Made by a program: the position numbers and the translations under genes. From Acidobacteriota bacterium (GTDB lineage: Bacteria; Acidobacteriota; UBA890; WLXD01): DNA of 64,000 bases. Location: the NCBI GenBank assembly GCA_965205505.1, contig CBDBHB010000008.1, positions 256,001-320,000 on the forward strand, in the 5' to 3' direction. The notes under the pieces are model-generated. The model searched no databases. It worked only from the letters and a program-made list of their open reading frames with translations, and was not told where the DNA came from. Of the stretch, positions 6,608 to 55,215 are shown one piece after another; the stretch's first letter is position 1; every line of letters starts with the position of its first letter.

Positions 6608-7004
6608 CTCTTCCCTCCTCGTCGGAATCCGCCGCGAAGATCTCAGGGGCATATCGCCGCATGAGCGCCTTCGTACCACCGTTGATCGGCGCGAACGCTC
6701 GCTGCCCTACGTGTACCCGCCAGCGGTAGTTGATGCCCGTGTCACGCGGGACGCAATGAACGTCGAGGGTTCCGTAGAAGCTCGAAAGCACCTCCGCCGT
6801 GCAGCTGAGTTCACCCTCGTCATCGGCGATGAACTCCCCCAACCGCGGCTGCCCACCCGCCTCGAAGCTCGTCACCACCTCGATCGAGCGACGAATGTCG
6901 CCCGCCCGATACATCCGGTTCAGCGTGTAGAGCGTCGCTAGACCGAGGATCGCCATGGGGATCACCAGGAACCAGTTGTCGCGTCCGATATGAAAGCGTG
7001 CCAT
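6597..7004 (-). CDS. Hypothetical membrane-anchored protein
   Basis: 135 aa with an N-terminal hydrophobic helix; fills the gap between co-oriented genes. Confidence 0.7.
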   Translation of the reverse strand: MARFHIGRDNWFLVIPMAILGLATLYTLNRMYRAGDIRRSIEVVTSFEAGGQPRLGEFIADDEGELSCTAEVLSSFYGTLDVHCVPRDTGINYRWRVHVGQRAFAPINGGTKALMRRYAPEIFAADSDEEGRDGR

Positions 7005-7011
7005 CTAGTGT

Positions 7012-8406
7012 CTAGACGACCAGGCCGGCCACGAGGTAAAGCAGAGTCGCGAGACCTCCGCCTGCAAGCGCGTACGGAATCTGGGTCGTGACGTGCTCTA
7101 TGTGGTCACATCCAGCCGACATAGACGAGACCACGGTGGTATCGGAGATCGGTGAGCAGTGGTCGCCGAAGATCCCGCCACCCATCACTGCCGCTACGGC
7201 CAGTGGCACCGAAGAGCCGCTCTGAAGCGCCAGCGGAACGGCGATCGGTATGAGGATGGCGAAGGTGCCCCACGAGCTGCCGGTGGAGAAGGCAATCACA
7301 CATCCGGTGCCGAAGACGACCGGCGCCACGGTAACCGGTGTCAAGAGCGGCGCCGCGATCGACGCCACCCAGGGTCCCGTGCCGAGCGCCCGACAGACGG
7401 CTCCGATCCCCAGCGCAAGCGCCAGAATCGCGGCAACAGGTACAAGCTCCTGAAAACCCCGTATGGCCGAATTAGTCATCTCGGCGAACGAGAACAGCCC
7501 CTGCGCGCGATACAGCAGCATCGCTACCAGCACGCCGCTCGACGTTGCCAGCAACACGGCGGTCGAGGCCGAGCCCCGTAGCCATTCGCCGTCTCCGGTG
7601 ATGTACAGGACGACCGGCACCATGACTACCGTGACCACCACCGGCAAGATCAGATTACGCGCCTTCTTGCCCGCCTCGGGCGCGTTCTCGCCGAGGTCTG
7701 ATGTCGGGCCATCGACGCGGCCGGCGCCCTCCGCCGCAGCGGCCTCGGCTCTCGCCATGGGGCCGTAGTCGCGTCCGCTCAGCGCCACCAGGAACACCGT
7801 CGCAAGTGCCAGCAGCGCATAGAAGTTCAGTGGGATGGCTGCAATCAGCACGCCCAGGGGGTCGGCGAGCCCCTCGGCAGCGAGCAAGCTGATGATCAAC
7901 GCACCCCACGCGTTGATCGGGATCAGCATACATATAGGTGCCGATGTCGAGTCACACACGTACGCTAGCTTGGCGCGCGAAAGACCGACGCGATCGTAGA
8001 GCGGACGCGACACAGTGCCGGTTACAAGGCACGTGATGTTCGACTCGATGAAGATCGCTATTCCCAGAAACGCCGAGATCAGCTGGGCGGAGCGCTTGTC
8101 GCGTACCCAGCCGCGCGTTATCGCCCATTCGGCAAAGCCAGCTACGCCACCGGACTCGCGCAACAGCACGATCAAGGCACCCACCATCAAGGTGAACATC
8201 AGCGTACGTGCGTTATCGCCATTGGAAACCACGCCGACGAGCTGATCGATGGCCGCGGCGGCGCCGGCCAGCGGATTGAACCCGGCAAGGATCGTGGTAC
8301 CGATCCAGATCCCGGCGAACAGCGACAGGTGCACCTGGCGGGTCCGCAAGGCCATGACGATGGCCAGGATCGGCGGCACTATCGACAGCCAGCCGTACGT
8401 TGACAT
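7012..8406 (-). CDS. Na+/H+ antiporter NhaC-family / amino-acid transporter
   Basis: LSIVPPILAI, LAYVCDSTSAP, FSTGSSWGTFAI and FGDHCSPISDTT motifs. Confidence 0.9.
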   Translation of the reverse strand: MSTYGWLSIVPPILAIVMALRTRQVHLSLFAGIWIGTTILAGFNPLAGAAAAIDQLVGVVSNGDNARTLMFTLMVGALIVLLRESGGVAGFAEWAITRGWVRDKRSAQLISAFLGIAIFIESNITCLVTGTVSRPLYDRVGLSRAKLAYVCDSTSAPICMLIPINAWGALIISLLAAEGLADPLGVLIAAIPLNFYALLALATVFLVALSGRDYGPMARAEAAAAEGAGRVDGPTSDLGENAPEAGKKARNLILPVVVTVVMVPVVLYITGDGEWLRGSASTAVLLATSSGVLVAMLLYRAQGLFSFAEMTNSAIRGFQELVPVAAILALALGIGAVCRALGTGPWVASIAAPLLTPVTVAPVVFGTGCVIAFSTGSSWGTFAILIPIAVPLALQSGSSVPLAVAAVMGGGIFGDHCSPISDTTVVSSMSAGCDHIEHVTTQIPYALAGGGLATLLYLVAGLVV

Positions 8407-8516
8407 GGATCTGCTGGGTAGGGGCCCCATTTTCGGGGCCGGGAGGGCTCATATGTTACCCCGGTGTCCGTGGCCCTGCCGAAATCGCGCTGGCCACGCT
8501 GCTACACTCGCCGACC

Positions 8517-9269
8517 ATGACCACACCCGCCGCACAGCTGGGCTATTACCACGGCGCCGAGCGCATTCGGTACATCGGTAGCTGGGCGGTCACGATGACG
8601 GCGACGATCGTTCTCGGCACGGCGGGAATCCTGGTCTCCTTCCTCGCTGCGCGCGGCACCGTGACACACGCCTGTGCCCGGATTTGGGGACGGGCACTCC
8701 TCTGGATCAACGGTGTCGTGGTGCAAACCGAAGGCGGCGAGAATCTCGACCCCGACGCAGCCTACGTGCTCGTCGGCACCCACCAGTCGGCCCTCGACAT
8801 CCCGGCCTTGCTGGTGGGATTGCCGGTGCCCTTCCGTTTGCCCGCCAAGGCGTCGCTGTTCCGCATCCCGTTCGTCGGCTGGTACATGCGACGCGTCGGG
8901 TGCGTGCCGCTGGACGCGGGCGCCGACGACTCGGTCGTCGAGGCGCTTTGGAGTCCCCGGCGGCGAGCCGCCGGGTCGATGTCCACCGTCATCTTTGCCG
9001 CGGGCACCCGCGCCGCCGAAGGAGAGTTGTCGTGCTCTTGCGTAAACGGCGTCGACCTCGCACGCGCTGCTGGCGTACCGATCGTGCCGATCGTGCTGGT
9101 GAACAGCCGCGCCCTCATGCCGATCGGCAGGCGCTTCGCGGATCCCGGCAGCATTCAGGTTCGGATCGGTACGCCGCTGGAGCCTGATCCTGACGTCTCC
9201 ACGGGCGATGATGTGGCCACCGCGGTCCGTGATGCCGTTGCCGCGCTCAGGTTGGCGCACGCCCGATGA
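8517..9269 (+). CDS. Lysophospholipid acyltransferase family protein (PlsC-like)
   Basis: HQSALD (HX4D), AKASLFRIPFVGW and VPIVPI; the FPEGTR block reads FAAGTR. Confidence 0.8.
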   Translation: MTTPAAQLGYYHGAERIRYIGSWAVTMTATIVLGTAGILVSFLAARGTVTHACARIWGRALLWINGVVVQTEGGENLDPDAAYVLVGTHQSALDIPALLVGLPVPFRLPAKASLFRIPFVGWYMRRVGCVPLDAGADDSVVEALWSPRRRAAGSMSTVIFAAGTRAAEGELSCSCVNGVDLARAAGVPIVPIVLVNSRALMPIGRRFADPGSIQVRIGTPLEPDPDVSTGDDVATAVRDAVAALRLAHAR

Positions 9270-9976
9270 TTCCACTGCGCGATGACAACCCGACTGATAG
9301 CACACCTTGGGTGACCTACCTGCTATTCGGCGCCAACCTGGCCGTCTTCGCCTTCCAGCTGCAGGTGCGCATGACGGGCGGCGACCAGGCGTATTTGGCA
9401 CTGGTCACACAGCTGGGGCTGGTTCCCGTCGCCCTGACTTCGCCGACGCTTTGGATGCAGATGCCCATCCCGGCACCACTGACACTGCTGACCTCGATGT
9501 TCGTGCACGGTGACCTGTTCCACTTGGGCGGCAACATGCTCTACCTGTGGGTCTTCGCCGACAACGTCGAGGACAGACTCGGATCGGTTCGCTTTCTGGC
9601 CTTCTACCTGCTGTGCGGACTCAGCGCAGCGGGCGCGCAGGTGGCTCTCATGCCCGAGAGCACCATTCCGATGGTAGGCGCGAGCGGCGCCATCGCCGGG
9701 GTCTTGGGCGCCTACATGCTCCTGTACCCGACCGCCCGGGTGTTGACGCTCGTAGTCCTGGTGATCTTCATCCGCATCATGTACCTGCCGTCTGTCCTCC
9801 TGCTGGGGATTTGGTTCCTTATTCAGCTTTGGTCGGCAGGCAGCGGTGGCACGGTGGGGGTGGCGTGGTACGCACATGTCGGCGGGTTCGTGGCCGGCCT
9901 CGTGCTCGTCGGAGTCTTCGCGAAGCGGATGCGACACCGGCGGCCGAGAGTCGAGACCTATCGACAACGCCCGTAG
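9266..9976 (+). CDS. Rhomboid-family intramembrane serine protease
   Basis: MIPLRDDNP, SMFVHGDLFHLGGNM, VGASGAIAG and AWYAHVGG. Confidence 0.95.
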   Translation: MIPLRDDNPTDSTPWVTYLLFGANLAVFAFQLQVRMTGGDQAYLALVTQLGLVPVALTSPTLWMQMPIPAPLTLLTSMFVHGDLFHLGGNMLYLWVFADNVEDRLGSVRFLAFYLLCGLSAAGAQVALMPESTIPMVGASGAIAGVLGAYMLLYPTARVLTLVVLVIFIRIMYLPSVLLLGIWFLIQLWSAGSGGTVGVAWYAHVGGFVAGLVLVGVFAKRMRHRRPRVETYRQRP

Positions 9977-10859: not shown

Positions 10860-12037
10860 CCAGATCCTCCGCCGGCCGCATCCACAGCCTTCCGCGCCGC
10901 CTCTTGAAGGGTTTCAGCAACCATGAACTCGAGCTCCGAGCTGCGTAGGATCTCGCGCCCCTCCTCAGCATTGGTGCCTTGTAGTCGAACCACGACGGGA
11001 ACCTTCACCTCGACCGTGTCCAACGCCTCGATCACACCCTGCGCTACTCGATCGCCCCGCACGATGCCGCCGAAGATGTTGATCAACACCGCCTTCACCT
11101 GCTCGCCCTTCATCAGGATTCGAAACGCGTTGGCCACGCGCTCGACCGACGCGCCGCCGCCCACATCCAGAAAGTTGGCGGGGAATCCTCCGGCGTTGCT
11201 AATCTCGTCCATGGTGCCCATCGCCAACCCGGCGCCGTTCACCATGCAGCCCACGGTGCCATCGAGCGCTACGTAGCTCAGAGAATGCTCCGATGCTTCG
11301 AGCTCGAGCGGATCCTCCTCGCTGCGATCGCGTAGTTCGGCCAGGTCTGCATGGCGGTACAAGGCATTCTCGTCGAGCACGATCTTGGCATCGAGCACGA
11401 TGACCTCGCCGTCCGGCCCGATCGCCAGCGGGTTGATCTCGGCGAGCGCAGCATCGAGCTCGTCATAGGCGCGCGCTAGCTTCATGATCGTGGCAGCCAC
11501 TCGGCGAGCCACACGACCCTCGAGGCCAAGCCGGTAGGCGAGGCGCGCCGCCTGGAACGGACGTAACCCCCATCCGGGAACGCAGGGCTCCTTGAGAATC
11601 GCCTCCGGGTTGCGCTCGGCGACCTCCTCGATCTCGACGCCGCCCTCGGCGGACGCGATCACCACCGGGCAGCGAGCCGATCGGTCGATGGTAAGCGCGA
11701 GGTAGAGCTCGTCGACAATATCGGCGCCGGCCTCGATCAATAGCTGGCGCACGACCACCCCTTGGGATCCGGTCTGTGGCGTGATCAGCGCGTTCCCCAG
11801 CATGGCTCCGGCGAATTCACCCGCCTGTTGCGGGGTGTCGGCAAGCTTGATGCCGCCGCCCTTGCCACGCCCGCCGGCGTGCACCTGCGCCTTCACCGCA
11901 AAGCGCGTTGCCCCCTCGGCGGCGAGGTTCTCGGCGACCTCGCGGGCCTCGTCGGCACTCGTCGCCACCGCACTCGCGAGAACGTTCAACCCGCGCTGAC
12001 GCAGCAGCTCTTTGGACTGATACTCGTGCAGCTTCAA
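10856..12037 (-). CDS. sucC: Succinyl-CoA ligase beta subunit
   Basis: [33 protein letters not shown] and NFLDVGGG; the TTG start overlaps the bioY stop. Confidence 0.97.
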
Positions 12038-44006: not shown

Positions 44007-46844
44007 CTACCAGTCGAACGAACGCGTGACCTTGAGGGTGAGCGAGCGGTCGTGGCGTCCGAAGCGGAGCCCATCGTAGGCGCCCGCCTGACGGTAGACG
44101 AGATAGATATCGTCGCCGATACGGTAGATGTAGCGCAGCCGGGCGAACACCGAGAGCCCGTTTGAAACGTTGCCGTACTGCACCAGCCCGTCGGTGAGCC
44201 AGCGATCCGAAAAGCTGTAGCTGGCACGCGCGTTGAGCACGTTGCTCGTGAAGCTGCCACCCGGCAGGTCGATCTTGTTGTAGCTGAAGGTGGGGGCGAT
44301 GAGCAGCCTCTCGCTGAGGCGAAACGTCAGCCCGGGCGACACCGTGACAATCGTACCGTCGTAGAACTCCCCGATATTTGCGTCGCCGCTCACGCTGATC
44401 CAGCGACCGCCAAAGGTGAAATAGAAAAGGTACAGGGTGTCGAATGTGTACTCGCCCGGCGCAATCGTCACGTCGGGGTGGATCTGGAAGGGAAAGTCGA
44501 GCCGCTCGAACGTGTTCGAGTAATAGGCGCCTATGCCGTCCCCCGACTCGGTGTTGAGGAAGCCGCCGTACCACGACTCGCGGCTGACGAGGTCGCCCCT
44601 GGTGTCGTGGAAGGTCGTGTAGTTGATATCGAAGTTCACCGACCGCAGCCAGGAGATATCGGGCCGTGGATTCCACGCGCCGCGGAAGGCTCGCTGCACG
44701 ACGTCGTCGCGCAGGACGAAGCCCAGATCGCTGCGGAAGTCGGGGTCGACGCGGATGACGTCGAAGCTGGCGCGCCACAGATCGCTCTGCCAGCCGACGC
44801 CGAACTGACCGGCGAACTTACCTTCCTCGACATCGTCGTCGCTAGCCCGGGCGCCGAAAGCGGAGATGTTGAGGTTGTCGAAGAAGGTAAAGCTGGCGTC
44901 GGCGCCGACAACCGTGTTGGTGGCCCCGTCCGGACCTTCGACGTTGGTTACCAGCGCACCCACGCTCGACCGGGCCAGCACGTCCTGACGCCAGCGCAAT
45001 GCCGTGAACCCCTGTCCGGTGCCAAACCCGGAGTCGTCCGTACGGACGTGGAGGAAGCCAACGCTGCCGCCGCCGATCTTGCCGGTCATCTTAGTGCCGA
45101 AGTCGATCGGGATCGGGACGCCCGAGGGCGACAGCCCGATGTTGCGCGAGTGGAAAAGCCGCAGCAACGGCGCGCCGAAGCCACCTCCACCGCTCGGCCC
45201 GAAACTGAAGTTGTTGGCGCCCTCGAGGAAGAAGTCGCGCTTCTCCGGGAAGAATAGTGAGAACCGCGTCAGGTTGACGCGCTGGTCGTCAAGCTCGACC
45301 TCGGCGAAATCGGTGTTGTAGGTCAGGTCAGCGGTCAAGTTCGAGGTGAGCTGAATCTTGAGATCGTCGATGCCGAACTGCTCGTCGACGTCGTTCGTAC
45401 GGCCGGGATCCTCGAAGAGCGAGGTAGCTGTGCCAAGGAAGTACGGCCGCAGCCGGAACCGCTGGGTCACCGAGAGATTCTGGAAGCCGCGCAGGTCGCC
45501 GGCCTGCGACACGGCGATGAAACGGAAGTCGCGCCGGTAATTGCTCCAGGCAACCTGCTCGTTCTTGCGGCGGATCTGGCGCTCGAAATCGACGCCCCAA
45601 TCGGCCAGGCCGGTGGAGAAGCGCAAGATCCTGAGAGGAATCACCAGCTCCGCCTCCCAGCCGCGTGAGGTGACTTGCGCGGCCGCCTCCCAAGCCTCGT
45701 CCCATTCGGAGTTGATCTGACTTTCGTTGCGGATGGTGGCGTCATAGCGAGCACCCAGCGGATTGACCGTGAACAGGAAGGCGCTGCGTCCGTCGTGGAA
45801 GGTATCCAGCACGACGCTGAACGTGTCATCCGAGCCGCCGCCACCTCCACCGCCGCCGAAAAACCCTCCGCCGCCGCCAAGCGCGTCGCGTCGCAGCTCA
45901 CTGGCAAGAATACCGCTCGGGTTCGTGTCGTAGGCGATCAGCCCGACGTAAAGGTTCTGGTCGTCGTACAGAATGCGCACCTCGGTGCGCTCGGACGCCG
46001 GCTGTCCTTCCCGCGGCTCGCGTTGCAGGAAGTCGGTGGCGACGTCGGCCAGGGCCCAACTGGCGTCGTCGACGATGCCGTCCATCACCGGAGCCTCAAC
46101 GGTACGTGTCACGGTCAGGTCGGGCGCCACACCGGGTGCTCGCGCCGATCGGGGTCGCGCCACTCCGAACGCCATCTCAGGAGCGCTGGGTGTGGGAATG
46201 CCGGTGTCTCCCGGGGCAGTCGAAAGCCTGGGAACGACGGCCGCCAAACTCCTTGGTCCCGTCGGGCGCCTGATGGAGTCGCTGGGAATGCTCGGCTGTA
46301 CTAGGAGGTACCCGGGACGGGGCGGCCCGACCGGCGGGTCGCTCGCAACGAACGGAGCTGGTGCCAGCGGCGGCACACGACCGGGATCCATGACCGGAGC
46401 ACCGGCGACCCGAACCGGAGTGTTCAGCGCATTCGTCACCACCATACGAACCGGGATGTATCTCCTCGGTGCCCGCGCAACCACGCTCAGAGGCGCTCGA
46501 CGGCCGCCGCCAGCCCCGGTCCCGGTCGGCCGCACCCTCGACGAACTGGCACGCGTGCTCGGTGCCACCATGCGGACCGGAATCGCACGCCGCCCGGCCA
46601 CCCGCTGCGTCGCGGGGGCCTCGGTCTTGGCCGAGTCGTCCGTGGCCAGCTCAAGCTTGGCGGATTCTGGCCTGGCCCGTTTTGGCCGCCCGGGTTCCCC
46701 CTTGGCAGATGCAGCTCGGGCGGACTGAGCCTGGCGCTTGCCTCCTCCGGAACCAGAGCCAGACGGGGTCGAAGCCTGCAGACGCGGACCCGCTCCGACC
46801 ACCAGCGCAATGCAGACGACAAGAACGAGTCTGGGCTTGTGCAC
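44007..46844 (-). CDS. DUF5916-like outer-membrane protein with a carbohydrate-binding family 9-like domain and a long low-complexity N-terminal extension
   Basis: APVMDGIVDD..W, TEVRILYD, WEAELVIP, NTDFAEVE, NLTRFSLFFPEKRDFFLEG and a C-terminal aromatic residue (SFDW). Start uncertain. Confidence 0.82.
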   Translation of the reverse strand: MHKPRLVLVVCIALVVGAGPRLQASTPSGSGSGGGKRQAQSARAASAKGEPGRPKRARPESAKLELATDDSAKTEAPATQRVAGRRAIPVRMVAPSTRASSSRVRPTGTGAGGGRRAPLSVVARAPRRYIPVRMVVTNALNTPVRVAGAPVMDPGRVPPLAPAPFVASDPPVGPPRPGYLLVQPSIPSDSIRRPTGPRSLAAVVPRLSTAPGDTGIPTPSAPEMAFGVARPRSARAPGVAPDLTVTRTVEAPVMDGIVDDASWALADVATDFLQREPREGQPASERTEVRILYDDQNLYVGLIAYDTNPSGILASELRRDALGGGGGFFGGGGGGGGSDDTFSVVLDTFHDGRSAFLFTVNPLGARYDATIRNESQINSEWDEAWEAAAQVTSRGWEAELVIPLRILRFSTGLADWGVDFERQIRRKNEQVAWSNYRRDFRFIAVSQAGDLRGFQNLSVTQRFRLRPYFLGTATSLFEDPGRTNDVDEQFGIDDLKIQLTSNLTADLTYNTDFAEVELDDQRVNLTRFSLFFPEKRDFFLEGANNFSFGPSGGGGFGAPLLRLFHSRNIGLSPSGVPIPIDFGTKMTGKIGGGSVGFLHVRTDDSGFGTGQGFTALRWRQDVLARSSVGALVTNVEGPDGATNTVVGADASFTFFDNLNISAFGARASDDDVEEGKFAGQFGVGWQSDLWRASFDVIRVDPDFRSDLGFVLRDDVVQRAFRGAWNPRPDISWLRSVNFDINYTTFHDTRGDLVSRESWYGGFLNTESGDGIGAYYSNTFERLDFPFQIHPDVTIAPGEYTFDTLYLFYFTFGGRWISVSGDANIGEFYDGTIVTVSPGLTFRLSERLLIAPTFSYNKIDLPGGSFTSNVLNARASYSFSDRWLTDGLVQYGNVSNGLSVFARLRYIYRIGDDIYLVYRQAGAYDGLRFGRHDRSLTLKVTRSFDW

Positions 46845-47102
46845 GACGAGAGATTTCCGGGACCGTGTGGCGGCGACGAGGCTCTGCGTCACTACACTAC
46901 ATCGCGGGTGTGAGGGCACACACGACCTCATCTCGAGCGAAGAGCGAGCGGACGGCCAGATGCGGCCCCACTTGACCGCTGGGCTGCGGAGGCGGAATGT
47001 GCGAAGGGTCCGTAGTGTCCTCCGTCGTGCTTTCCGTCGGGTATGGTGAAGGCGGTCACTGGCTGCGTCGCGGTGGCACTCTGGTCGCTGCGACCAGGCA
47101 CC

Positions 47103-47451
47103 ACTTACCCGGAGACGAAGGACCCTGACTTTTATCTCGAGCGAGGCATCGACGTCGATCGGAAGCTCCACGAGCTACTGGTGAGGAACGGGCTCGACAA
47201 TCCTGAGCGACGAGGGGCTCGACCATGTGGCCGGGTACGCTCAGGGCGTCAGCCTGTTCCTTACCTTCGTTCTCGGCGATCCGACGCTCGTCGATAGGGC
47301 TCACGACCGGGGCCTCGCCGTTCACGCCTGGCAGGCATTCGAGGCGTTTCCACCGAGCGATTTCATTGATGAAGCGGCCTACATTCGGCACCTTCTGAAC
47401 GACATCGGGCTCGACGCCCTCTTCGTTCACGATCCCGGACTCTGTCCATGA
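47103..47451 (+). pseudogene. Glycerophosphodiester phosphodiesterase (GlpQ-like) remnant
   Basis: YPETKDP in one frame; LVDRAHDRGLAVHAW and IGLDALF in another. The N-terminus and middle are missing. Confidence 0.6.
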
Positions 47452-47551: not shown

Positions 47552-47875
47552 ATGGGCCAAGCTTCTTGGGAGCGCGGGATCCGAGAATCCAAGCGCCGTG
47601 CTGCTAGCTGTTTTCTCGTACTTCTACTGAGCCTCGTGGTTCTGTCTGTACCCGCGACGTCCTCGCTGGCGGGCACAGAATTGGCGCCGACGATGATTGC
47701 CAACGAGCAAAGCAGCTTGTTCTGGGTCGGGCTCGCTTACCTGACGGAGGACCGACGGGCGAGCGCCATGGTGGGCGTCGTGGGTGCGGTCCAGACGTCG
47801 ATCAACTCGGCGATCATCGGAGCCGTCTTCGGCGGCCCGGCGGGTTTCGCCGCGGGCGTGGGTTACGGGCTCTAG
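47552..47875 (+). CDS. Putative circular bacteriocin precursor (107 aa)
   Basis: GGGAGGT RBS; signal-peptide-like N-terminus; Gly/Ala-rich hydrophobic C-terminal half ending GGPAGFAAGVGYGL; directly upstream of SpoIIM-Yip1-ABC genes. Confidence 0.72.
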   Translation: MGQASWERGIRESKRRAASCFLVLLLSLVVLSVPATSSLAGTELAPTMIANEQSSLFWVGLAYLTEDRRASAMVGVVGAVQTSINSAIIGAVFGGPAGFAAGVGYGL

Positions 47876-47904
47876 CAGGCCGTGGTGAAAGTGTGGTGGG
47901 TCTG
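47872..47904 (+). repeat. Solo copy of the MITE terminal repeat on the precursor stop codon
   Basis: CTAG + CAGGCCGTGGTGAAAGTGTGGTGGGTCTG, identical to 51380-51412. Confidence 0.9.
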
Positions 47905-47963
47905 TAACAGATCCGACTCAGGGGCGGAGCTCATCACCTGTGAGCCCGCCCCGAGGAGATTCC

Positions 47964-48560
47964 ATGGGGTGGCGTGGAACTCTAACTACAACAGCGAGAT
48001 CGTTGACCATGCCTGCAGTGACTGCGGCGCTACTCTGGGGAGCGTCAGCGACCGTCGGGGCAGGTCTCCTCATTGACTCGATCCCGATGGCTCAGAGCTC
48101 CGATTCAGCCACCGTGCTCGGCTTAGAGCGAGCCACCGTGTCGTTCCGGGTGATCCTGAAGCGCAACTTGTGGGTCTTCGGGATCAATATCGCAGGTGTG
48201 GCCAGTTTGGGAATCAGCACCCTTGGCTCTGTCGTTGCGAACGGGCTTCAAACAGGCATGGCGCTTGCCCAGGCGCACCGAGAAAATGTCGGCCTTCGGT
48301 CACTCGTCGCAGTGACTCTTCCCCATAGCCTCGAGCTTGTCGCGCTGTGGCTTTCAGCAGCTGTCGGGTTCCTCGGCCCTCGCCTGACGATGTCGTTTGT
48401 GAACAACAGCGAGCTGCCAACCTCACCCACGCCACAAACTCTTGCCCTGGTCGTGCTCGCACTGGCGGGGCTGATAGTCACGGCGGCCGCCTTGGAGGTA
48501 GGCGTGTCGTTGCCCGTAGCGGAGCTTCTTCGAAGCGCGGCGTCCGGGATCGGCTGGTGA
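47964..48560 (+). CDS. Stage II sporulation protein M / DUF95 membrane protein
   Basis: ILKRNLWV, VVANGLQTG and TLPHSLELVALWLSAAVG (PHxxxE-type SpoIIM motif); GAGGAG RBS. Confidence 0.82.
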   Translation: MGWRGTLTTTARSLTMPAVTAALLWGASATVGAGLLIDSIPMAQSSDSATVLGLERATVSFRVILKRNLWVFGINIAGVASLGISTLGSVVANGLQTGMALAQAHRENVGLRSLVAVTLPHSLELVALWLSAAVGFLGPRLTMSFVNNSELPTSPTPQTLALVVLALAGLIVTAAALEVGVSLPVAELLRSAASGIGW

Positions 48561-49114
48561 CTTTCGACGACGGGACCGACAGATTGCTATCCACACTCCT
48601 CGTTGTTGGCACAGCGCTCGTACAAGGTCAGATCTCAGCGACCGTCGCCAGCAGTGTCACCACTGTCGTGATTCCGGCCTGGGCGGCGCTCTTCGCGGGC
48701 TTCAACGGACTGATGACATGCGCTCTGGCGATCGTTTTCTGGCTACTCATAACCACCATCGCTCACATCATCTGCCTGGTCATGGATGGCCGCGGCGCTT
48801 ACGGTCGTTTCGTAGTATGCGCTGGCTACGGTTATCTCCCCTACTTCCTGACGACACTGATCACACTCGTGGCGGTGATCGACATCTCACCTCAGATCTC
48901 TGCGGCCCTAGAGTCGGGTGAGATGATCGGGGCTCCGTTACGCGCGCGGCTACGTTGGTACGGAGCACTCAACAACGCGGCGCAGGTGCTGTTGTTCGGC
49001 TGGGTGATAGCCGCGGCGCGGCGCGTCCACGGCGTCACGATGATTACGGGCGTGGTGAGCGTGCTGGTACCTGTCGGGGCTGTCCTTCTGGCCCGTGGCG
49101 TGCTCATCGCATGA
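48557..49114 (+). CDS. Yip1-domain membrane protein
   Basis: AHIICLVMDGRGAYGRFVVCAGYGYLPYFL matches the Yip1 pattern; GTGA coupling to the SpoIIM gene. Confidence 0.75.
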   Translation: MTFDDGTDRLLSTLLVVGTALVQGQISATVASSVTTVVIPAWAALFAGFNGLMTCALAIVFWLLITTIAHIICLVMDGRGAYGRFVVCAGYGYLPYFLTTLITLVAVIDISPQISAALESGEMIGAPLRARLRWYGALNNAAQVLLFGWVIAAARRVHGVTMITGVVSVLVPVGAVLLARGVLIA

Positions 49115-49824
49115 GCGTCATCGCTCGGGCAGACACGACGCTTCGCTGTACGGACCTATCTCGGACCTATTGCAGGCGAGAGGTACTGCGCATCGACGAT
49201 CTGGTTATCAAGCCTGGCGAACGGGTCGCCGTCGTTGGTCCGAACGGCGCCGGGAAGACCACCTGGCTGCGGATACTCCTCGATCTGGTCCGACCAACCA
49301 GCGGAACAACCACCTTTGGTCTTCTCTCGCCGGAGCAGGCACGGCGCCAAGGCCTGGTAAGCGGGTACCTGGGCGAGGATTTTCTGATCCCCTATCTGAC
49401 GGCGGAGGAGTACCTGGCGTTCGTCGGCCGGTCCTTCGGATTGAGGACGGATGAGATTTCCACCGCCAGACAAGAGCTCGACGACCTCATCGGCTTCGTC
49501 GGGTCGACGAAGCTGATCCGCCAGCTCTCCACCGGTATGGGCCAGAAAATCGGCATCGCTGGTGCGCTGTTGGCTAACTCGCCGATCCTGATACTCGACG
49601 AGCCGTTTGCCAACCTTGATCCGCCATCTTGCTTGTCACTCATACGCCAGCTCAAGACACGCCACGCATCAGCGCACGCCACGCACATCGTGTCGAGCCA
49701 CAACCTCGAGTACGTTGCCGACATCGCAGACCGCGTCCTCCTGTTGGAGGAAGGTCGCATTACCTGGGACGAGACCGAGCACACCCAAGCCAGCTTGCGC
49801 CGGCACTTCATCCGGAACGCCTAG
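49111..49824 (+). CDS. ABC transporter ATP-binding protein
   Basis: GPNGAGKTT, LSTGMGQK, ILDEPFANLD and SSH; ATGA coupling. Confidence 0.95.
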   Translation: MSVIARADTTLRCTDLSRTYCRREVLRIDDLVIKPGERVAVVGPNGAGKTTWLRILLDLVRPTSGTTTFGLLSPEQARRQGLVSGYLGEDFLIPYLTAEEYLAFVGRSFGLRTDEISTARQELDDLIGFVGSTKLIRQLSTGMGQKIGIAGALLANSPILILDEPFANLDPPSCLSLIRQLKTRHASAHATHIVSSHNLEYVADIADRVLLLEEGRITWDETEHTQASLRRHFIRNA

Positions 49825-49860
49825 CAGGCCGTGGTGAAAGGGTGGTGGGTCTGGCGACAG
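49821..49860 (+). repeat. Solo copy of the MITE terminal repeat on the ABC ATPase stop codon
   Basis: CTAG + CAGGCCGTGGTGAAAGGGTGGTGGGTCTGGCGACAG; one mismatch to the reverse complement of 51619-51654. Confidence 0.9.
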
Positions 49861-49878
49861 CGTCTTGCGAGGCGATGG

Positions 49879-51357
49879 TTGATCGAATCGCTCCTGCGGC
49901 ACGAGGCTACTCGTATTCGCCGAGGCGTCGGTTTCAACGCAATACGCCTCGTCATCCGGATCGGCCTGGCCGCGCTGCTGCTTCCACTCGTCGGGATGTG
50001 CTTCGCACTGGGGCTGGTGTGGGTTAAGGCGACATCTGAGCTTGGAATCGACGGAATCGCGTTTCTTTCCAAGTACGCCCTACCGTTCTTGACGATCTTG
50101 ACAACCGTTCGTGTGGCCTTCGACCGCGGCGTCGCACTCAACCCGCTTCCATATGTGGCATTGGCCCATTCGCGCCGCAGTTTGACGGGATTCGTGATCG
50201 TCCGATCACTGTTCAACAGGTACGCGTTGATTGTCTGTCTGTTCGCCGGCGGTTTGCTGATTGCGCCCCAGCTGGCAACGGGGAGCAGTCGGCAGGTGCC
50301 ACCGAGCTGGTTCATTGCGCTGGCCACAATCTGGATCGTTGGCGATCTCGCTGTGCACACACTGAGAACATGGCTCTTTCGGAGGTCCGTCGGCTACGTG
50401 ATTCTTACGGGGCTGGGTCTCGCGGCGGCATCGCTGGGCTGGCTATCGAATCTCTCGAGCGCCTACTTTGCCTGGGCAGAGACATCTCCAACGGCGGCAA
50501 TCTCAACGGGGCTCGCGGCCCTGGGCGCAGCTGTTTGGGCGGCGTACCTGAGCCTTGCAGAGTCGACCTATCTGGATACCGTAGCCATGACCGACGGTCG
50601 GCGGCCGTGGCCCTTCGCGGTTCATTTGTTGAGATCGGCCAACCCCGCAACTCGCTCCGCAGCGCTCTTGCTCTGCCTGCTTGCCCGGGTTCCCAAGGCC
50701 CGGACCACCATACTGGGCGGCGCCGTGATGACCGGAGCCGCTGTCTTCATCTATTGGCTCAACCCCGGCTACGGCGACAACAAGCTCATCGGCATGGGCG
50801 TCCTCGCAGGGTTCTACAGCAGCGGCAGCTTGGCCTTTTTCGTCGGGCAGCTGGGATTGAGCTGGCAGAGCAGCTTCTATGACCTTCTGGCGTACGCCGA
50901 GCGCGACGAGCGCGACGTCATCCGCGGGCAAATCGTGAGCCTTCGATCACTCGTGCTCATGCAGTACGCGCTCGCAGCGCTCCTGTTCACCGCAATCATC
51001 GACGGTGGACTCTTCGTCGTGACCAGCTTCGCGATCTTCAATATTGGCTGTGTGCCCCCGGTTTGTGTGTGGATCTCCCTCAGCAACTCTCGGCGAATCG
51101 ACCCCTACGAATCTTCTTTCTTCTCCCAGGAAGGAAGCTCCAGCGCCGTTGAATCGTCGCTGGGGACCGCTGTTCTCGTAGCGATTCCGCTTCTGCTGAG
51201 CTTCGCGGCGATCTCTTCGGAGATCGGGGGCCTCGTTGCCATCGCCGCCGCAGGCGCCGCCGGTATCGCCATAGGCCCCGCGATTGAACGGCGCCTCGCA
51301 TCGCTCTACAGGTCGCGGCGACACGTCCTCGCCCACCAGCTGAGACAGCGTTCCTGA
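49879..51357 (+). CDS. Large multi-pass membrane protein / ABC permease (resembles DUF5687 proteins)
   Basis: Many TM segments; PYVAL..SR..L..F...RSLF, GQLGLSWQSSFYD and FNIG...N.RRID. Start is TTG 49879, or GTG 49831 inside the repeat. Confidence 0.72.
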   Translation: MIESLLRHEATRIRRGVGFNAIRLVIRIGLAALLLPLVGMCFALGLVWVKATSELGIDGIAFLSKYALPFLTILTTVRVAFDRGVALNPLPYVALAHSRRSLTGFVIVRSLFNRYALIVCLFAGGLLIAPQLATGSSRQVPPSWFIALATIWIVGDLAVHTLRTWLFRRSVGYVILTGLGLAAASLGWLSNLSSAYFAWAETSPTAAISTGLAALGAAVWAAYLSLAESTYLDTVAMTDGRRPWPFAVHLLRSANPATRSAALLLCLLARVPKARTTILGGAVMTGAAVFIYWLNPGYGDNKLIGMGVLAGFYSSGSLAFFVGQLGLSWQSSFYDLLAYAERDERDVIRGQIVSLRSLVLMQYALAALLFTAIIDGGLFVVTSFAIFNIGCVPPVCVWISLSNSRRIDPYESSFFSQEGSSSAVESSLGTAVLVAIPLLLSFAAISSEIGGLVAIAAAGAAGIAIGPAIERRLASLYRSRRHVLAHQLRQRS

Positions 51358-51383
51358 GACGGGCGCTCGCCCGACCCCCCTAG

Positions 51384-51654
51384 CAGGCCGTGGTGAAAGT
51401 GTGGTGGGTCTGGTTACGGCGAGTTGGGGCCAGGTGCAAGGCGGCCTGACACAGGCGATGCCCTAGCCATCGTCGAGGAAGGCCAACGCCGCAAATGGCC
51501 CCAAATCGCCGTAACCCTTCGGGCAACAGGGGGTTGCGCGCGTATGCTGCGTCGTTCCTCGTCAACGATGGGGTTACCATCGTCTCCTCCTCTCTCCTTG
51601 CCTCCACTTCGCAAGTCCCTGTCGCCAGACCCACCACACTTTCACCACGGCCTG
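51384..51654. mobile_element. MITE-like non-autonomous element, 271 bp, with 30-bp perfect terminal inverted repeats and CTAG flanks
   Basis: 51384-51413 CAGGCCGTGGTGAAAGTGTGGTGGGTCTGG is the exact reverse complement of 51625-51654; CTAG at 51380-51383 and 51655-51658; no transposase inside. Confidence 0.88.
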
Positions 51655-51663
51655 CTAGTGTCC

Positions 51664-53004
51664 TTACTCAGGACGCTTTTCTCGAAGCCGCCTTCGGACG
51701 TCCTCGTAGTAGGGCTCGTTCTTCTGCGCGATGACGATCTGATGCCCATCCGGATCGGAGATGGTGAAGAAGTGCAGCCACGGCCGAATCTCGACCTCGT
51801 TGGGCTCGGGTACGAGGCCGTTCGCCGTCGCTCTCGCGAAGTGCCTCTCGACATCGTCCACCATGAAGTAGTGGCGCACACCGCCTCCGTAAACTGGCTC
51901 GGCGTCGTCCGATGTGGTCAGCGCGAGGCGTCGTCCCGCGCTCAGAAGCTCTGCATACTCGGGAGAATAGGGTCTGTCCCACGACAGCTCGTAGCTGTCT
52001 TCCTGGTAGTCGTAGTAGTACTGATGTTCGAAGCCGAGGCTCTCGTAGAAGGTCGTGCTCTTTCGAACGTCGGTTACGTAGAGGGCAGTGAGGGTCTCTC
52101 CGGTGAAATCGGCGGGGGGCGTTGCGGGCCCGCCGCAACTTGTCAGCAGGGCCGGCAACGCGACCACCTGAAGGAGCGAGAACCGGAGGGCCGATGAAGC
52201 CCCGCTGGCGCCTTGTTGACGAGTCGTGCTAGCCGCCAACGGCGAGTCCGAGGCGCGGGATACGAGCGCGATGGCCAGGCTGATCGGGATCGCTCCCAAG
52301 AGCAGGTTCCATGCCTGCGGCTGTCCGAATAGCAGCCCCCGCGAGCCGAGCTCAGCGATGACGCCGGCGGTCCACATGGTAGCCACGACCAACGGCAGGT
52401 GCGCGGCGCAACGCACGGCGCGATCGGCGCGGACTAGGCGCACAACAAAAACGACGGCCGCCAAGACGGAAAACAGATTGGCGATCAGCAGCACGAGTCC
52501 GCCGATGATCTGCAACGTCGCCTGCGGAACCATGCCTGCGATCGCCGCCACCAGCCAGGCAACGGCCGGCGGCGCATAGAGCGCGACCCGGACAACTCGT
52601 GCCACCGACCCGCCGCTCGGAAAGATCAGCGCAAGGTGCAAGAATGCGGCCTCGGCCAGTGCACTGAATCCCAGGTACACGAAGAGGAGGCTGAGCTCGA
52701 TCCCGGCGTGCGCGGCGCCGATGGTTCCACCCCAGTGGATTCCACCACCCACGCCGTACAGCAGTAGGACGACCGTGAATCGTCCGGGACGCAGCCTCCA
52801 CGCCGCCGCCCCGCACACCAGAAACAGCACTCCCAGCAAGGTGATCGGCAGACGAAGGCTGTCGGGTATGCTGACCAGCGAGGACGGCCACAGCAGTGCC
52901 GTCGCCCGCCAGAGCAAAACGGCGACCGTCGCCAAGACGACCCATCTCCGGCCTTCGTAGCCGGTTTCAACAGCAGAACGACTCATTCCATGGTCCTCAC
53001 TCAT
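51664..53004 (-). CDS. Multi-TM membrane protein fused to a VOC/glyoxalase-family domain
   Basis: Hydrophobic N-terminal region; C-terminal LYVTDVRKSTTFYESLGF, YFMVDDVE and FTISDPDGH. Confidence 0.72.
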   Translation of the reverse strand: MSEDHGMSRSAVETGYEGRRWVVLATVAVLLWRATALLWPSSLVSIPDSLRLPITLLGVLFLVCGAAAWRLRPGRFTVVLLLYGVGGGIHWGGTIGAAHAGIELSLLFVYLGFSALAEAAFLHLALIFPSGGSVARVVRVALYAPPAVAWLVAAIAGMVPQATLQIIGGLVLLIANLFSVLAAVVFVVRLVRADRAVRCAAHLPLVVATMWTAGVIAELGSRGLLFGQPQAWNLLLGAIPISLAIALVSRASDSPLAASTTRQQGASGASSALRFSLLQVVALPALLTSCGGPATPPADFTGETLTALYVTDVRKSTTFYESLGFEHQYYYDYQEDSYELSWDRPYSPEYAELLSAGRRLALTTSDDAEPVYGGGVRHYFMVDDVERHFARATANGLVPEPNEVEIRPWLHFFTISDPDGHQIVIAQKNEPYYEDVRRRLREKRPE

Positions 53005-53078: not shown

Positions 53079-54065
53079 CTATGCGGTACCTGTTGCGGGC
53101 AATTCGAGGGTCACCTGCAGGCCGCGCTTCGCTGACCCGTCCAGCCTCAGCCCGCCGCCGTATAGCTCGACCAGGGCCTTGACGATCCGAAGCCCGACGC
53201 CACGACGCCGGCTGTGCGCCGACTCGGGTTGCCCGGTGGCCAATATCTGGTCTCGCACCGCTTCGCTGAGCCCCGGTCCGTCGTCCTCGACGACGATGAG
53301 CAACCTGTCCTCGGCGGCATGCGCCCGCACCTCGACGCTACCTCGACACCACTTGCAAGCGTTCTCGAGCACGTTGCCGAGCATCTCCTCGAGATCTTCC
53401 GGATTGCCATGAAAGTTCAGGTCCGGAGGCACCTCGCAACGAATCTCGAGCCGGCGGCCGACGTGCAGCTGGCGCATCGCACGCACCAGCCGATCGACGC
53501 TCGGAGCGACGGGACAGGACCCTGTGGGGGGCTGGGCGAGCCGGGCCGCGGCGGCACTGGCCCTGGACAAGTGCAGCGTCACTCGGTCGCTCATTGCCTC
53601 GACCTGTTCGCGCAGGCCCTCGGCTGCGGGGTGGTCGTCCTTTCGCAGCCGCTCGATCTCGTTGGTGAGAATTGTCAGCGGCGTCTTCAGGCCATGCGCC
53701 AAGCTGTCTGCTTCCAGGTGCGATCGCCGAAGGGCCTCTTGATTGCGCCGCAACAGGTCGTTGACCTCGTCCACCAGGGGATGCACCTCTGCCGGATACT
53801 CGCCTTCGAGCCGGGCAGCCGATCCGTCCCGCACCGGCGCCAGGCGCTGGCCCAGTCGAGTCAGTGGAAGGAGGCTCGCGGCGACCCGGAGGGCACCGCC
53901 CAGCATCAAGCCGAACGCCAGCAGGCAGATAACGCCGACCCAAAAGCCTTCGACTTCCAGAAAACCCACGGCGCCGAGCGCCAAGGCGCCGACGGCCCAC
54001 AGCAGGCCACCGGAAATGATCGCGGAACGGAGTGTGGTGGCGCGCGTCAGGCTCCTCACGTTCAC
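53079..54065 (-). CDS. Sensor histidine kinase with two closely spaced TM helices
   Basis: LAHGLKTPL (H-box), GNVLENACKW, EDDGPG and GVGL. Confidence 0.92.
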   Translation of the reverse strand: MNVRSLTRATTLRSAIISGGLLWAVGALALGAVGFLEVEGFWVGVICLLAFGLMLGGALRVAASLLPLTRLGQRLAPVRDGSAARLEGEYPAEVHPLVDEVNDLLRRNQEALRRSHLEADSLAHGLKTPLTILTNEIERLRKDDHPAAEGLREQVEAMSDRVTLHLSRASAAAARLAQPPTGSCPVAPSVDRLVRAMRQLHVGRRLEIRCEVPPDLNFHGNPEDLEEMLGNVLENACKWCRGSVEVRAHAAEDRLLIVVEDDGPGLSEAVRDQILATGQPESAHSRRRGVGLRIVKALVELYGGGLRLDGSAKRGLQVTLELPATGTA

Positions 54066-54769
54066 ACCGTGCGGCCTCGAGCGAGTCCAGCGCCCGGGTG
54101 GTCAGAACCCGTCTGCTCGGGCACTTGATAGCCCAGGCCACTCAGCGTGCGGATCAGATCGCGGCCCAGCTTCCGGCGCAGCCGGGCGATGAACACCTCG
54201 ATGGTGTTGGAGTCGCGCTCCCAATCCTGCGCGTAGACATGCTCGACGAGCTCCGACACCGACACCACCCGGCCCTGATTGTGCAGCAGGTAGCGCAGCA
54301 CCTTGAGCTCGTACGCGGTCAGATGAACGCGCTCGCCTTCGAGCCTGACCTTGAGCGACCCCGTATCGAGAGTCACAGCCCCGTGCCGGAGCACCGGCGA
54401 CGCACGTCCTGCAGAACGTCGCAGTAGCGCCCGTAACCTCGCGAGAAGCTCCTCCATGCGAAACGGCTTGGGGAGGTAGTCGTCCGCACCCGCGTCTATC
54501 CCCGCCACTCTCTCGTACCATCGGCCGCGCACGGTGAGCACGAGGACCGGTGTTGCCACTCCCTCCGCGCGCAGCTTCTCGAGCACCTGCAGGCCATCGA
54601 TTCCTGGAAGCCCCAAATCCAGGACGATCGCGTCGTGGGTCTGCATGCAGGCTAGCTCGAGTGCCTCCTCGCCGTTCGACGCGAGATCGACCGAATAGCC
54701 CCCCGACCGAATGTCCTCCGCCAGCTGCCTGGCGAGATCGGCCTCATCCTCAACAACGAGTACCCGCAT
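54062..54769 (-). CDS. OmpR/PhoP-family response regulator
   Basis: VLVVEDE, LDLGLP, GADDYLPKPF and NTIEVFIARLRRKLG. Confidence 0.96.
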   Translation of the reverse strand: MRVLVVEDEADLARQLAEDIRSGGYSVDLASNGEEALELACMQTHDAIVLDLGLPGIDGLQVLEKLRAEGVATPVLVLTVRGRWYERVAGIDAGADDYLPKPFRMEELLARLRALLRRSAGRASPVLRHGAVTLDTGSLKVRLEGERVHLTAYELKVLRYLLHNQGRVVSVSELVEHVYAQDWERDSNTIEVFIARLRRKLGRDLIRTLSGLGYQVPEQTGSDHPGAGLARGRTV

Positions 54770-54822
54770 ACGGTCGGCTCCCGGAGCCTATTCTACGAGC
54801 AGGCCGTCGGTTGTTCTTCCGG

Positions 54823-54870
54823 TTGCGCTACCTCACCTGGTGAGGTATGTTCGCCTCACTTGGTTAGGTA
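54823..54870 (+). promoter_or_regulatory. Sigma70-type promoter (TTGCGC-17 bp-TATGTT) overlapped by tandem palindromic operators
   Basis: Perfect inverted repeat TACCTCACC-T-GGTGAGGTA at 54829-54847; a second 15/19 copy at 54852-54870; upstream of padR. Confidence 0.7.
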
Positions 54871-54897
54871 AGAAAGAACCCCGCCGGAGTAGCTCCC

Positions 54898-55215
54898 TTG
54901 AGCCTGTTGCAAGGAACGCTCGACATCTTGATTCTGACCGCTGTGCGCAGCACCCCGTTGCATGGCTACGCAATCGCCCAAGAGATCGGCTCACGAACGG
55001 CCGGTGAGATCGAGGTAGAAGACGCGGCGCTCTACAAGGCACTGCATCGTTTGGAGGCTCGTGCGCTCATCGATGCCGAATGGGGCATGTCGGAGTCACG
55101 TCGCCGCGCCAAGTTTTACCGAATAACGCCGCAAGGCGCCGAAGTTCTGGAGTCCGAAACCGACGCTTGGCAGCGCTACGTTGACGCCGTCGCCAAGGTC
55201 ATCGATCCCCAGTAG
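54898..55215 (+). CDS. PadR-family transcriptional regulator (acidobacterial type)
   Basis: LLQGTLDILIL, LHGYAI, LYKALHRLE and W..SE..RRAKFY. Confidence 0.93.
   Translation: MSLLQGTLDILILTAVRSTPLHGYAIAQEIGSRTAGEIEVEDAALYKALHRLEARALIDAEWGMSESRRRAKFYRITPQGAEVLESETDAWQRYVDAVAKVIDPQ

Follow-up and report, generated by a model that had tools for sequence, protein, structure and literature searches.

The window analysed here (64,000 nucleotides of an Acidobacteriota bacterium, to which all positions refer unless another source is named) contains five co-oriented genes at 47552-51357. They are best read as a diderm form of the circular-bacteriocin kind of gene cluster, with a new family of precursor peptides and a core of three genes, which encode the peptide, a short SpoIIM/DUF95 membrane protein and a Yip1-like membrane protein. 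We regard the chances as even that this is a SpoIIM-dependent cluster of that kind for the maturation and export of a peptide in a diderm host, and the actual head-to-tail cyclisation of the product appears, from the analysis as a whole, to be about equally balanced. Directly observed are the order of the genes and their translational coupling, the trio's conservation and the selection acting on the core of the peptide. The original prediction, made from the letters of this DNA, had described a divergent system of the circular-bacteriocin type; the gene set, the synteny and the grouping of SpoIIM sustain it, whereas neither by sequence nor by fold does the peptide match a circular-bacteriocin family. 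The system shares a key protein with circular-bacteriocin systems, comes out negative in one defining sequence test, and is not a plain member of the class.

All five open reading frames (ORFs) lie on the + strand. The precursor peptide gene (47552..47875, 107 amino acids [aa]) has homologues and is preceded, 5 nt upstream, by the ribosome-binding site GGGAGG. It is followed by the genes for the short-type SpoIIM/DUF95 membrane protein (47964..48560, 198 aa; PF01944, 34 bits against a cut-off of 26.9), the Yip1-like polytopic membrane protein (48557..49114, 185 aa; PF04893, 25.6 bits, under the gathering cut-off of 28.6), an ATP-binding cassette (ABC) transporter ATP-binding protein without a membrane domain (49111..49824, 237 aa; ABC_tran, 79 bits) and a DUF5687 polytopic membrane protein, the likely permease (49879..51357, 492 aa from TTG; PF18940, 96.8 bits against a cut-off of 33, profile positions 15-483 of 484). 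The middle three genes had been described as translationally coupled, and the overlaps of start and stop codons were read directly from the letters: GTGA at 48557 between the SpoIIM and Yip1 genes, and ATGA at 49111 between the Yip1 and ABC ATPase genes. The four domain assignments also hold; that of Yip1 is sub-cut-off in the window but passes in the homologue of locus L009 (29.0 bits), which matches the window protein at a phmmer E value of 1e-12. The SpoIIM frame is open from 47940, its likely start being the ATG at 47964 behind GAGGAG, in agreement with the 198-aa database form P0006. The DUF5687 frame opens at 49831 inside a repeat copy, and its closest relative aligns from residue 17; therefore the TTG at 49879 is the likelier start. 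The same genome carries LpxC (357 bits) and four Omp85 matches, and, as judged from these markers, the host, an Acidobacteriota bacterium, is diderm, as had been supposed.

Residues 1-40 of the peptide form a Sec-signal-like leader with a basic n-region, a hydrophobic stretch (the single hydrophobic segment of the protein, residues 17-35) and SLA before G41. A variable linker (residues 41-53) leads to a conserved glycine-zipper core (residues 54-107), which ends in GL without any C-terminal extension. A word-based search retrieved just four close relatives, an exhaustive phmmer search added seven remoter ones (83-101 aa), and a profile search gave 57 clusters at 90% identity (45-130 aa), none of them carrying a Pfam domain; the family is without any Pfam or NCBIfam model. 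Its few named members come from Prevotella/Segatella salivae, Cyclobacteriaceae, Balneolales, Acidobacteriota, a metagenome-assembled genome labelled Paenibacillus and an ANME-2c archaeon. In the alignments A3 and A5 a common plan is visible, consisting of a signal-like N-terminus, a short variable hydrophilic linker and the conserved core. The core starts with the motif small-x-hydrophobic-aromatic and ends with ...FGGPAGFxAGxGxGL at the extreme C-terminus. Among the 57 aligned sequences the aromatic column holds W (35), Y (14) or F (7), position -3 is G, A, S or T in 51, and the penultimate residue is small in 54; all 57 stop inside the conserved motif, 47 with GL and nearly all with a small-hydrophobic pair. 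From the aromatic residue to the end there are 54 residues in most members and 50 in the window's type. The family-wide motif at the core start places the putative minimal core of the window peptide at F57-L107 (51 aa; 47720..47872, + strand), and the isoelectric point (pI) of the core is 4.4-6.1, depending on the cut chosen.

Codon changes between the window and the congener G004 were counted separately for the two parts of the gene. The core shows 12 synonymous and 3 non-synonymous changes, and the leader plus linker 4 synonymous and 10 non-synonymous; therefore the selected product is the C-terminal part. The small ORF is a genuine gene under selection and belongs to a family that has no name. 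In embedding comparisons with the ESM Atlas the best neighbour of the peptide was a 'secreted protein' cluster (score 0.81), and the PF12173 cluster stood at rank 21 (0.76); all scores were below 0.9, so that these neighbours are leads only. One sub-group of the family (P0047, P0054, P0058, P0017, P0078, P0086 and P0089) has a distinctive common leader, MRYITKEDRT..., and one of the members with this leader is assigned by UniRef to Candidatus Methanogaster sp. ANME-2c.

The neighbourhood of the peptide gene was then compared across relatives. The genome searches covered Acidobacteriota, the context of the archaeal and of most Bacteroidota members lying outside this sample; a metagenome scan with alignment A3 gave three loci from more than 585 pattern matches (L008 and L009 carry the identical sequence), and a scan of genome contigs with DUF5687 gave one locus. 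The absence of a conserved small ORF from homologous loci had been chosen beforehand as an outcome that would refute the prediction, and this check turned out in favour of the prediction. A short SpoIIM gene was found directly downstream of a homologous peptide gene in all eight distinct loci (G000, G004, G001, G151, G308, G392, L007 and L009). The peptide is present in 6 of 401 Acidobacteriota genomes belonging to three genera, and in three of the five genomes of the window's genus. In the peptide loci SpoIIM is followed by a Yip1-like third gene, truncated in one of them (G001), for a polytopic protein of ~190-210 aa whose homology was established by the phmmer chain window-L009-L057-L058-L043; the L007 protein in third position had no match in this chain. 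The ABC ATPase and DUF5687 accompany the trio in the window's genus only, DUF5687 being present in 4 of 61 relatives, one of them with a weak match elsewhere in the genome. Both proteins are thus outside the conserved core of the system.

Several of these loci are damaged or rearranged. In G001 (L045, around 4914-4924) a segment of ~1.4 kb corresponding to 48953-50387 of the window has been lost, comprising the end of the Yip1 gene, the whole ABC ATPase gene and the start of the DUF5687 gene, with the peptide and SpoIIM genes intact. An insertion sequence (IS) splits the SpoIIM gene of G392 (L057, 5496-7721), the transposase ORF at 5991-7328 lying between the SpoIIM halves at 7374-7721 and 5496-5930. 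The trio of G151 (L043) is surrounded by four copies, two full and two partial, of a gene for a ~130-aa membrane protein without a Pfam family (5555-5947, 7021-7641, 9093-9374 and 11033-11215), with a mutator-type transposase beside it (7741-9096); these copies look like an array of immunity-gene paralogues. In the Bacteroidota-like loci L007 (7540-7860) and L009 (7541-7894) the peptide gene is immediately preceded by a gene for a 106-117-aa protein, a candidate partner in immunity or regulation that has no counterpart in the window. In L007 its sequence suggests an N-terminal zinc ribbon followed by hydrophobic segments, and in L009 it gave weak Pfam hits to zinc ribbons.

The SpoIIM family was detected in 62 of 201 Acidobacteriota genomes and falls into two populations, a common long type (open frames of ~320-360 aa, 90-135 bits) and a rare short type (~170-260 aa, 30-73 bits) present in eight of the 201 genomes. 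Seven of the eight short SpoIIM genes have a small ORF upstream, directly or one membrane-protein gene away, which encodes a signal-like N-terminus and a hydrophobic Gly/Ala-rich C-terminus. Four of these ORFs belong to the peptide family of the window and three have other sequences (G172, G127 and G084); two of the latter loci add an ABC ATPase, ABC-2-type permeases and Yip1-like genes (22.8 and 13.2 bits, below the Pfam cut-off). The exception is G078 (L040, 4285-6501), where the gene for a 183-aa short SpoIIM lies between that of an RtcB RNA ligase (599 bits), which it directly follows, and IS3-like genes, with no peptide.

When the window SpoIIM was compared by tblastn with 72,556 plasmids, six weak matches were obtained (E 0.3-0.7), annotated as 'stage II sporulation protein M' (four) or 'hypothetical protein' (two). 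Two of the six were inspected, and both lie inside clusters with an annotated circular bacteriocin. The same search gave no match for the peptide or for DUF5687. The window SpoIIM is 28% identical over 120 aa to the SpoIIM of Bacillus thuringiensis pYGD30 (pairwise E 1e-8), and N68, G78, G98, E124 (in LPHxxE) and E178 are invariant among 12 short SpoIIMs, ten of them from diderms and two from Bacillota. A maximum-likelihood tree separated the 12 short sequences, those of Bacillota among them, from 14 long-type Acidobacteriota proteins with support of 97/92; these 14 were used out of 30 long-type domains scanned (L037, from G166, which counts among the 62 SpoIIM-positive genomes, is among the 30 and outside the 14), and resolution inside the short group is poor, with many long branches. 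Searches of the SpoIIM profile and of DUF5687 against PDB sequences returned nothing meaningful.

The gene set had been proposed as the signature of circular-bacteriocin loci, and it does match annotated clusters of Bacillota. That of pYGD30 (NZ_CP019231.1; cerecyclin type) encodes a precursor, Yip1, a 572-aa membrane protein, an ABC ATPase and SpoIIM. The window and the Bacillota clusters (pYGD30 and a circularin/uberolysin-type cluster on the Clostridium perfringens plasmid NZ_CP102303.1) have several features in common. In both, the precursor is small and consists of a leader and a hydrophobic helical core that is not extended at the C-terminus, and the SpoIIM/DUF95 protein is short (~170-200 aa) and has the identical invariant residues N, G, G, E (LPHxxE) and E. 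Both further encode a Yip1 or Yip1-like protein, a polytopic membrane protein of ~500-570 aa and a soluble ABC ATPase of ~237 aa (30% identity and E 6e-29 between the window and pYGD30). Unlike in these clusters, the precursor of the window belongs to no known circular-bacteriocin family and has a Sec-signal-like leader, the probable core of 51-55 aa is shorter and neutral to acidic, the host is diderm, and the ATPase is missing from most related loci. The two Yip1 proteins showed no detectable similarity in a pairwise comparison of the window with pYGD30.

A second, tentative likeness is with the circular bacteriocins of subgroup ii (gassericin A, acidocin B and plantacyclin; BacteriocIIc_cy, PF12173), which like the window core are Gly/Ala-rich hydrophobic peptides. 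Subgroup ii members are neutral with a low pI (PMC8659200), as is the window core; unlike them, the window peptide gave no significant sequence match. The YknWXYZ system of Bacillus is a third comparison. YknW, a Yip1 protein, is accessory to an ABC pump giving protection against the SDP peptide toxin (PMC4887032); in the window too the gene of a Yip1-like protein lies with those of an ABC ATPase, to which it is translationally coupled, and of a permease, next to a peptide gene. The window differs from that system in having no membrane-fusion protein and no MacB/FtsX-type permease, the permease being DUF5687, and in a Yip1 Pfam match that is sub-cut-off.

The literature searched consisted of main-text passages, supplementary cluster tables lying outside it, and within this scope no circular bacteriocin of Acidobacteriota or Bacteroidota was found. 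A precursor, DUF95 and an ATP-binding protein are described as present in all reported circular-bacteriocin clusters, and the cerecyclin cluster as including a YIP1 gene (PMC8534725). The key parts are elsewhere given as the precursor, a large membrane protein, DUF95 and the ATPase (PMC13463998), and SpoIIM is treated as class-defining (PMC13289728). Circular bacteriocins had been expected to come essentially from Bacillota, and these passages place them there almost wholly: 6,925 of 6,928 predicted precursors are from Bacillota (PMC8534725), and one predicted Gram-negative cluster, from Novosphingobium sp. B-7, is already in print (PMC5695211). DUF95 has been proposed both to cut the leader and to close the ring, the P2 residue mirroring the penultimate residue of the core (PMC13463998). 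The small residue at position -3, which lies two residues ahead of the putative cut, together with the small penultimate residue, in 51 and 54 of the 57 family members, respectively, fits this P2/Pn-1' mirroring for a single cleaving and ligating enzyme, given the putative cut site.

DUF5687 is likely the permease partner of the ATPase. Its protein has at least seven hydrophobic segments, and its neighbours in the Atlas are DUF5687 clusters (0.97-0.98), the majority of them from Rhodothermota and Bacteroidota; 12TM_1 or ABC_export is present in part of the clusters beyond these, in keeping with a role of DUF5687 as an exporter permease. A literature search on this family found no paper.

The following route from precursor to product would be consistent with these data. 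The precursor would be inserted through Sec into the inner membrane, where the short SpoIIM/DUF95 and its constant Yip1-like partner would process it. By analogy with Bacillota, the leader would be removed just before the hydrophobic-aromatic start of the core, and the new N-terminus would be joined to the invariant Gly-Leu end by SpoIIM with Yip1, giving a head-to-tail ring. The product would correspond to the conserved C-terminal ~51-55 residues, the hydrophobic glycine-zipper part to which conservation points. The ABC ATPase and DUF5687 would act as an exporter that expels the peptide from the membrane of the producer, for secretion, self-protection or both, the pair being a genus-specific addition. 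Once released, the peptide might attack the membranes of competitors by means of its glycine zipper.

A series of results weighs against this interpretation. The precursor of the window gave no Pfam hits at E up to 1, and among NCBIfam models only non-significant hits to unrelated transporters. None of 40 family members scanned at E up to 10 matched PF09221, PF12173 or the NCBIfam circular-bacteriocin models, and the profile of the family, compared with PDB sequences at E up to 10, met no solved circular bacteriocin. The AlphaFold2 models are of low confidence (predicted local distance difference test, pLDDT, 60.1 for the precursor and 61.5 for the core) and have three helices, as against the four to five typical of the class; Foldseek searches of PDB with both models gave nothing at E 0.001 or better, which says little with models of such confidence. 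Characterised circular-bacteriocin cores are 58-70 aa long, and the putative core of 51-55 aa would be shorter. The leader is Sec-like, and a linear exported peptide would account for the gene equally well. With regard to the other genes, the fetched flanks of L009, G151, G308 and G392 contain no ABC ATPase gene, and G001 has lost it by deletion (the contig of L007 ends too early for its presence to be judged), and DUF5687 was not found anywhere in the genomes G151, G308, G392, G172 and G127. The best BLASTP comparison of DUF5687 proteins (492-508 aa) with the 572-aa protein of pYGD30, which is without a Pfam family, was not significant (E 1.3), and no small immunity gene is evident in the window. 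A complex prediction for SpoIIM (alignment A4) with the peptide (A3), run without controls, scored 0.01 and speaks neither for nor against the interpretation.

The Sec-like leader leads directly to one alternative, namely that the product is a linear, secreted bacteriocin-like peptide that uses Sec for export and is cleaved by signal peptidase behind SLA (A40|G41), with a membrane-active glycine zipper and no ring, and that SpoIIM, Yip1 and ABC/DUF5687 serve immunity or expulsion only. We consider this unlikely, although it is a serious candidate. The N-terminus is a canonical Sec signal (basic n-region, hydrophobic residues 17-35 and a small-x-small site), the ATPase is missing from most family loci, a Yip1 protein has a precedent in an efflux pump for a peptide toxin (PMC4887032), and DUF95 is described as connected to immunity as well (PMC5695211). 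In addition, 6 of the 40 family members scanned gave weak, non-significant matches to Bacteriocin_IIc, the best with E 0.13. Cutting at the signal-peptidase site agrees poorly, however, with a linker that varies in length and sequence while the start of the core and its exact C-terminus are fixed, mostly at 54 residues; this points to processing at the core boundary. Moreover, SpoIIM is strictly and directly coupled to the peptide gene in all eight loci, whereas the dedicated pumps are optional.

The conservation of the core raises a second alternative, in which the small protein is not antimicrobial and would be a resident subunit of the inner membrane or periplasm acting with SpoIIM and Yip1 in an unknown envelope function, ABC/DUF5687 standing beside it with little or no relation. 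Toxins that evolve fast do not usually show the strong conservation of the core motif that extends here from Bacteroidota to an ANME-2c archaeon; SpoIIM itself is broadly distributed (62 of the 201 Acidobacteriota genomes, and the control genomes of Caulobacter, Bacteroides and archaea), the trio occurs without DUF5687, and the window has no recognisable immunity gene. Against this stand the sporadic distribution (6 of 401 genomes), the decay by deletion in G001 and by IS insertion in G392, and the four membrane-protein gene copies and the transposase that flank the trio of G151, which are traits of accessory competition loci and not of housekeeping ones; the translational coupling of Yip1 to the ATPase also argues for a single unit. 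This alternative seems to us rather improbable. High-GC DNA yields many long chance ORFs, but a spurious small ORF or a chance grouping is refuted for practical purposes by 57 homologous clusters across phyla, the fixed place beside SpoIIM, purifying selection on the core and the strong ribosome-binding site. As for anti-phage defence, PADLOC gave hits for the ATPase to generic ATPase models only and none for the other four proteins at E 0.001 or better, and this candidate was rejected.

The reading as a diderm relative of circular-bacteriocin clusters can be extended to a broader proposal, which is tentative and more doubtful than probable. The trio of peptide, SpoIIM and Yip1 might be a minimal machine for head-to-tail cyclisation, in which the peptide crosses by Sec and the ring is closed on the outer face without an ATPase, SpoIIM with Yip1 being the cyclase; there would then be unrecognised circular peptides in Acidobacteriota, in Bacteroidota (including human oral Prevotella/Segatella) and possibly in ANME-2c. 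The enzyme that closes the ring of circular bacteriocins is still being sought, DUF95 having been proposed for the task (PMC13463998), and the three-gene module of diderms keeps SpoIIM and Yip1, often without the ATPase and the large 'B' protein. If the product is cyclic, only two small membrane proteins are left as candidates for the cyclase, and the class extends to soil Acidobacteriota and host-associated Bacteroidota. If it is linear, SpoIIM is an unreliable marker of cyclisation, which matters for mining rules that treat it as class-defining (PMC13289728).

The block sits between a truncated glpQ-like gene and a miniature inverted-repeat transposable element (MITE), both of which are present as had been stated. 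The glpQ-like gene (glycerophosphodiester phosphodiesterase; 47227..47451, + strand) is a C-terminal remnant matching GDPD PF03009 at 22.8 bits (cut-off 23.6; profile positions 186-243 of 244), and it is kept beside the cluster in G004 (89% identity) and G001. The complete MITE (51380..51660, without strand) has an inverted pair of terminal repeats at 51386-51412 (+) and 51626-51652 (-). Two solo copies of this 27-nt terminal repeat lie inside the cluster on the + strand, one directly 3' of the TAG stop of the peptide gene (47878..47904, no mismatches) and one after the TAG stop of the ABC gene, overlapping the first codons of the long DUF5687 ORF (49827..49853, one mismatch). All three + strand copies stand directly 3' of CTAGCA, and at the two solo copies the TAG of this hexamer serves as the stop of the peptide and ABC genes, respectively. 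G004 has a full copy of the MITE between the glpQ remnant and the peptide gene, and not downstream of the cluster.

The lower GC content of the block and the MITE had been taken as signs of horizontal acquisition. The cluster has indeed 61.8% GC against a genome mean of 64.3% (standard deviation [sd] 1.8), but this is a dip of 1.4 sd, and 8.3% of genome windows of the same size have no more GC than the cluster. The terminal repeat occurs four times in the window (none expected) and 210 times in the genome at up to three mismatches. The MITE being an abundant repeat of the genome and the dip only 1.4 sd, neither marks an island. An empty-site test gave no definable insertion boundary: in G002 and in G003, no similar DNA extends past the best orthologue of the DUF5916-family gene that lies upstream of the cluster, over 18 kb. 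Outside the window's genus the cluster was found in only two distant genera among the families searched, and this patchy distribution fits an accessory, transferable locus; the indication for horizontal acquisition of the cluster is weak.

A GC-rich stem-loop lies between the peptide gene and the ribosome-binding site of SpoIIM (47917..47955, + strand; minimum free energy -44.9 kcal/mol for 47866-47966, z -2.57). It has no T-tract 3' of it and is absent from the listing of the terminator scan, which found 3 terminator-like sites against 3.2 expected; the promoter scan found no sigma-70-like sites. The hairpin may stabilise or attenuate the transcript and, more speculatively, could shift the transcript ratio toward the peptide over the enzyme.

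Downstream of the MITE, on the - strand, is a gene (51664..53004) for a 446-aa protein with a membrane domain and a C-terminal glyoxalase/bleomycin-resistance domain (Glyoxalase PF00903, 39 bits). Like the cluster, it was found in G001 and G004 and not in G002 or G003; at the G004 locus only residues 1-347 match, and the membrane/glyoxalase fusion may be specific to the genome of the window. A functional tie of this protein to the peptide system is unproven. The upstream neighbour (44007-47171, - strand) encodes a 1054-aa protein matching DUF5916 at 43.6 bits, and each of four congeners has 17-24 matches to the large paralogous family to which it belongs. Past the 446-aa gene, at 53079-55215, are a putative histidine kinase and a putative response regulator on the - strand and a small + strand ORF that is PadR-like by eye; the circular-bacteriocin cluster of pYGD30 likewise opens with a PadR regulator.

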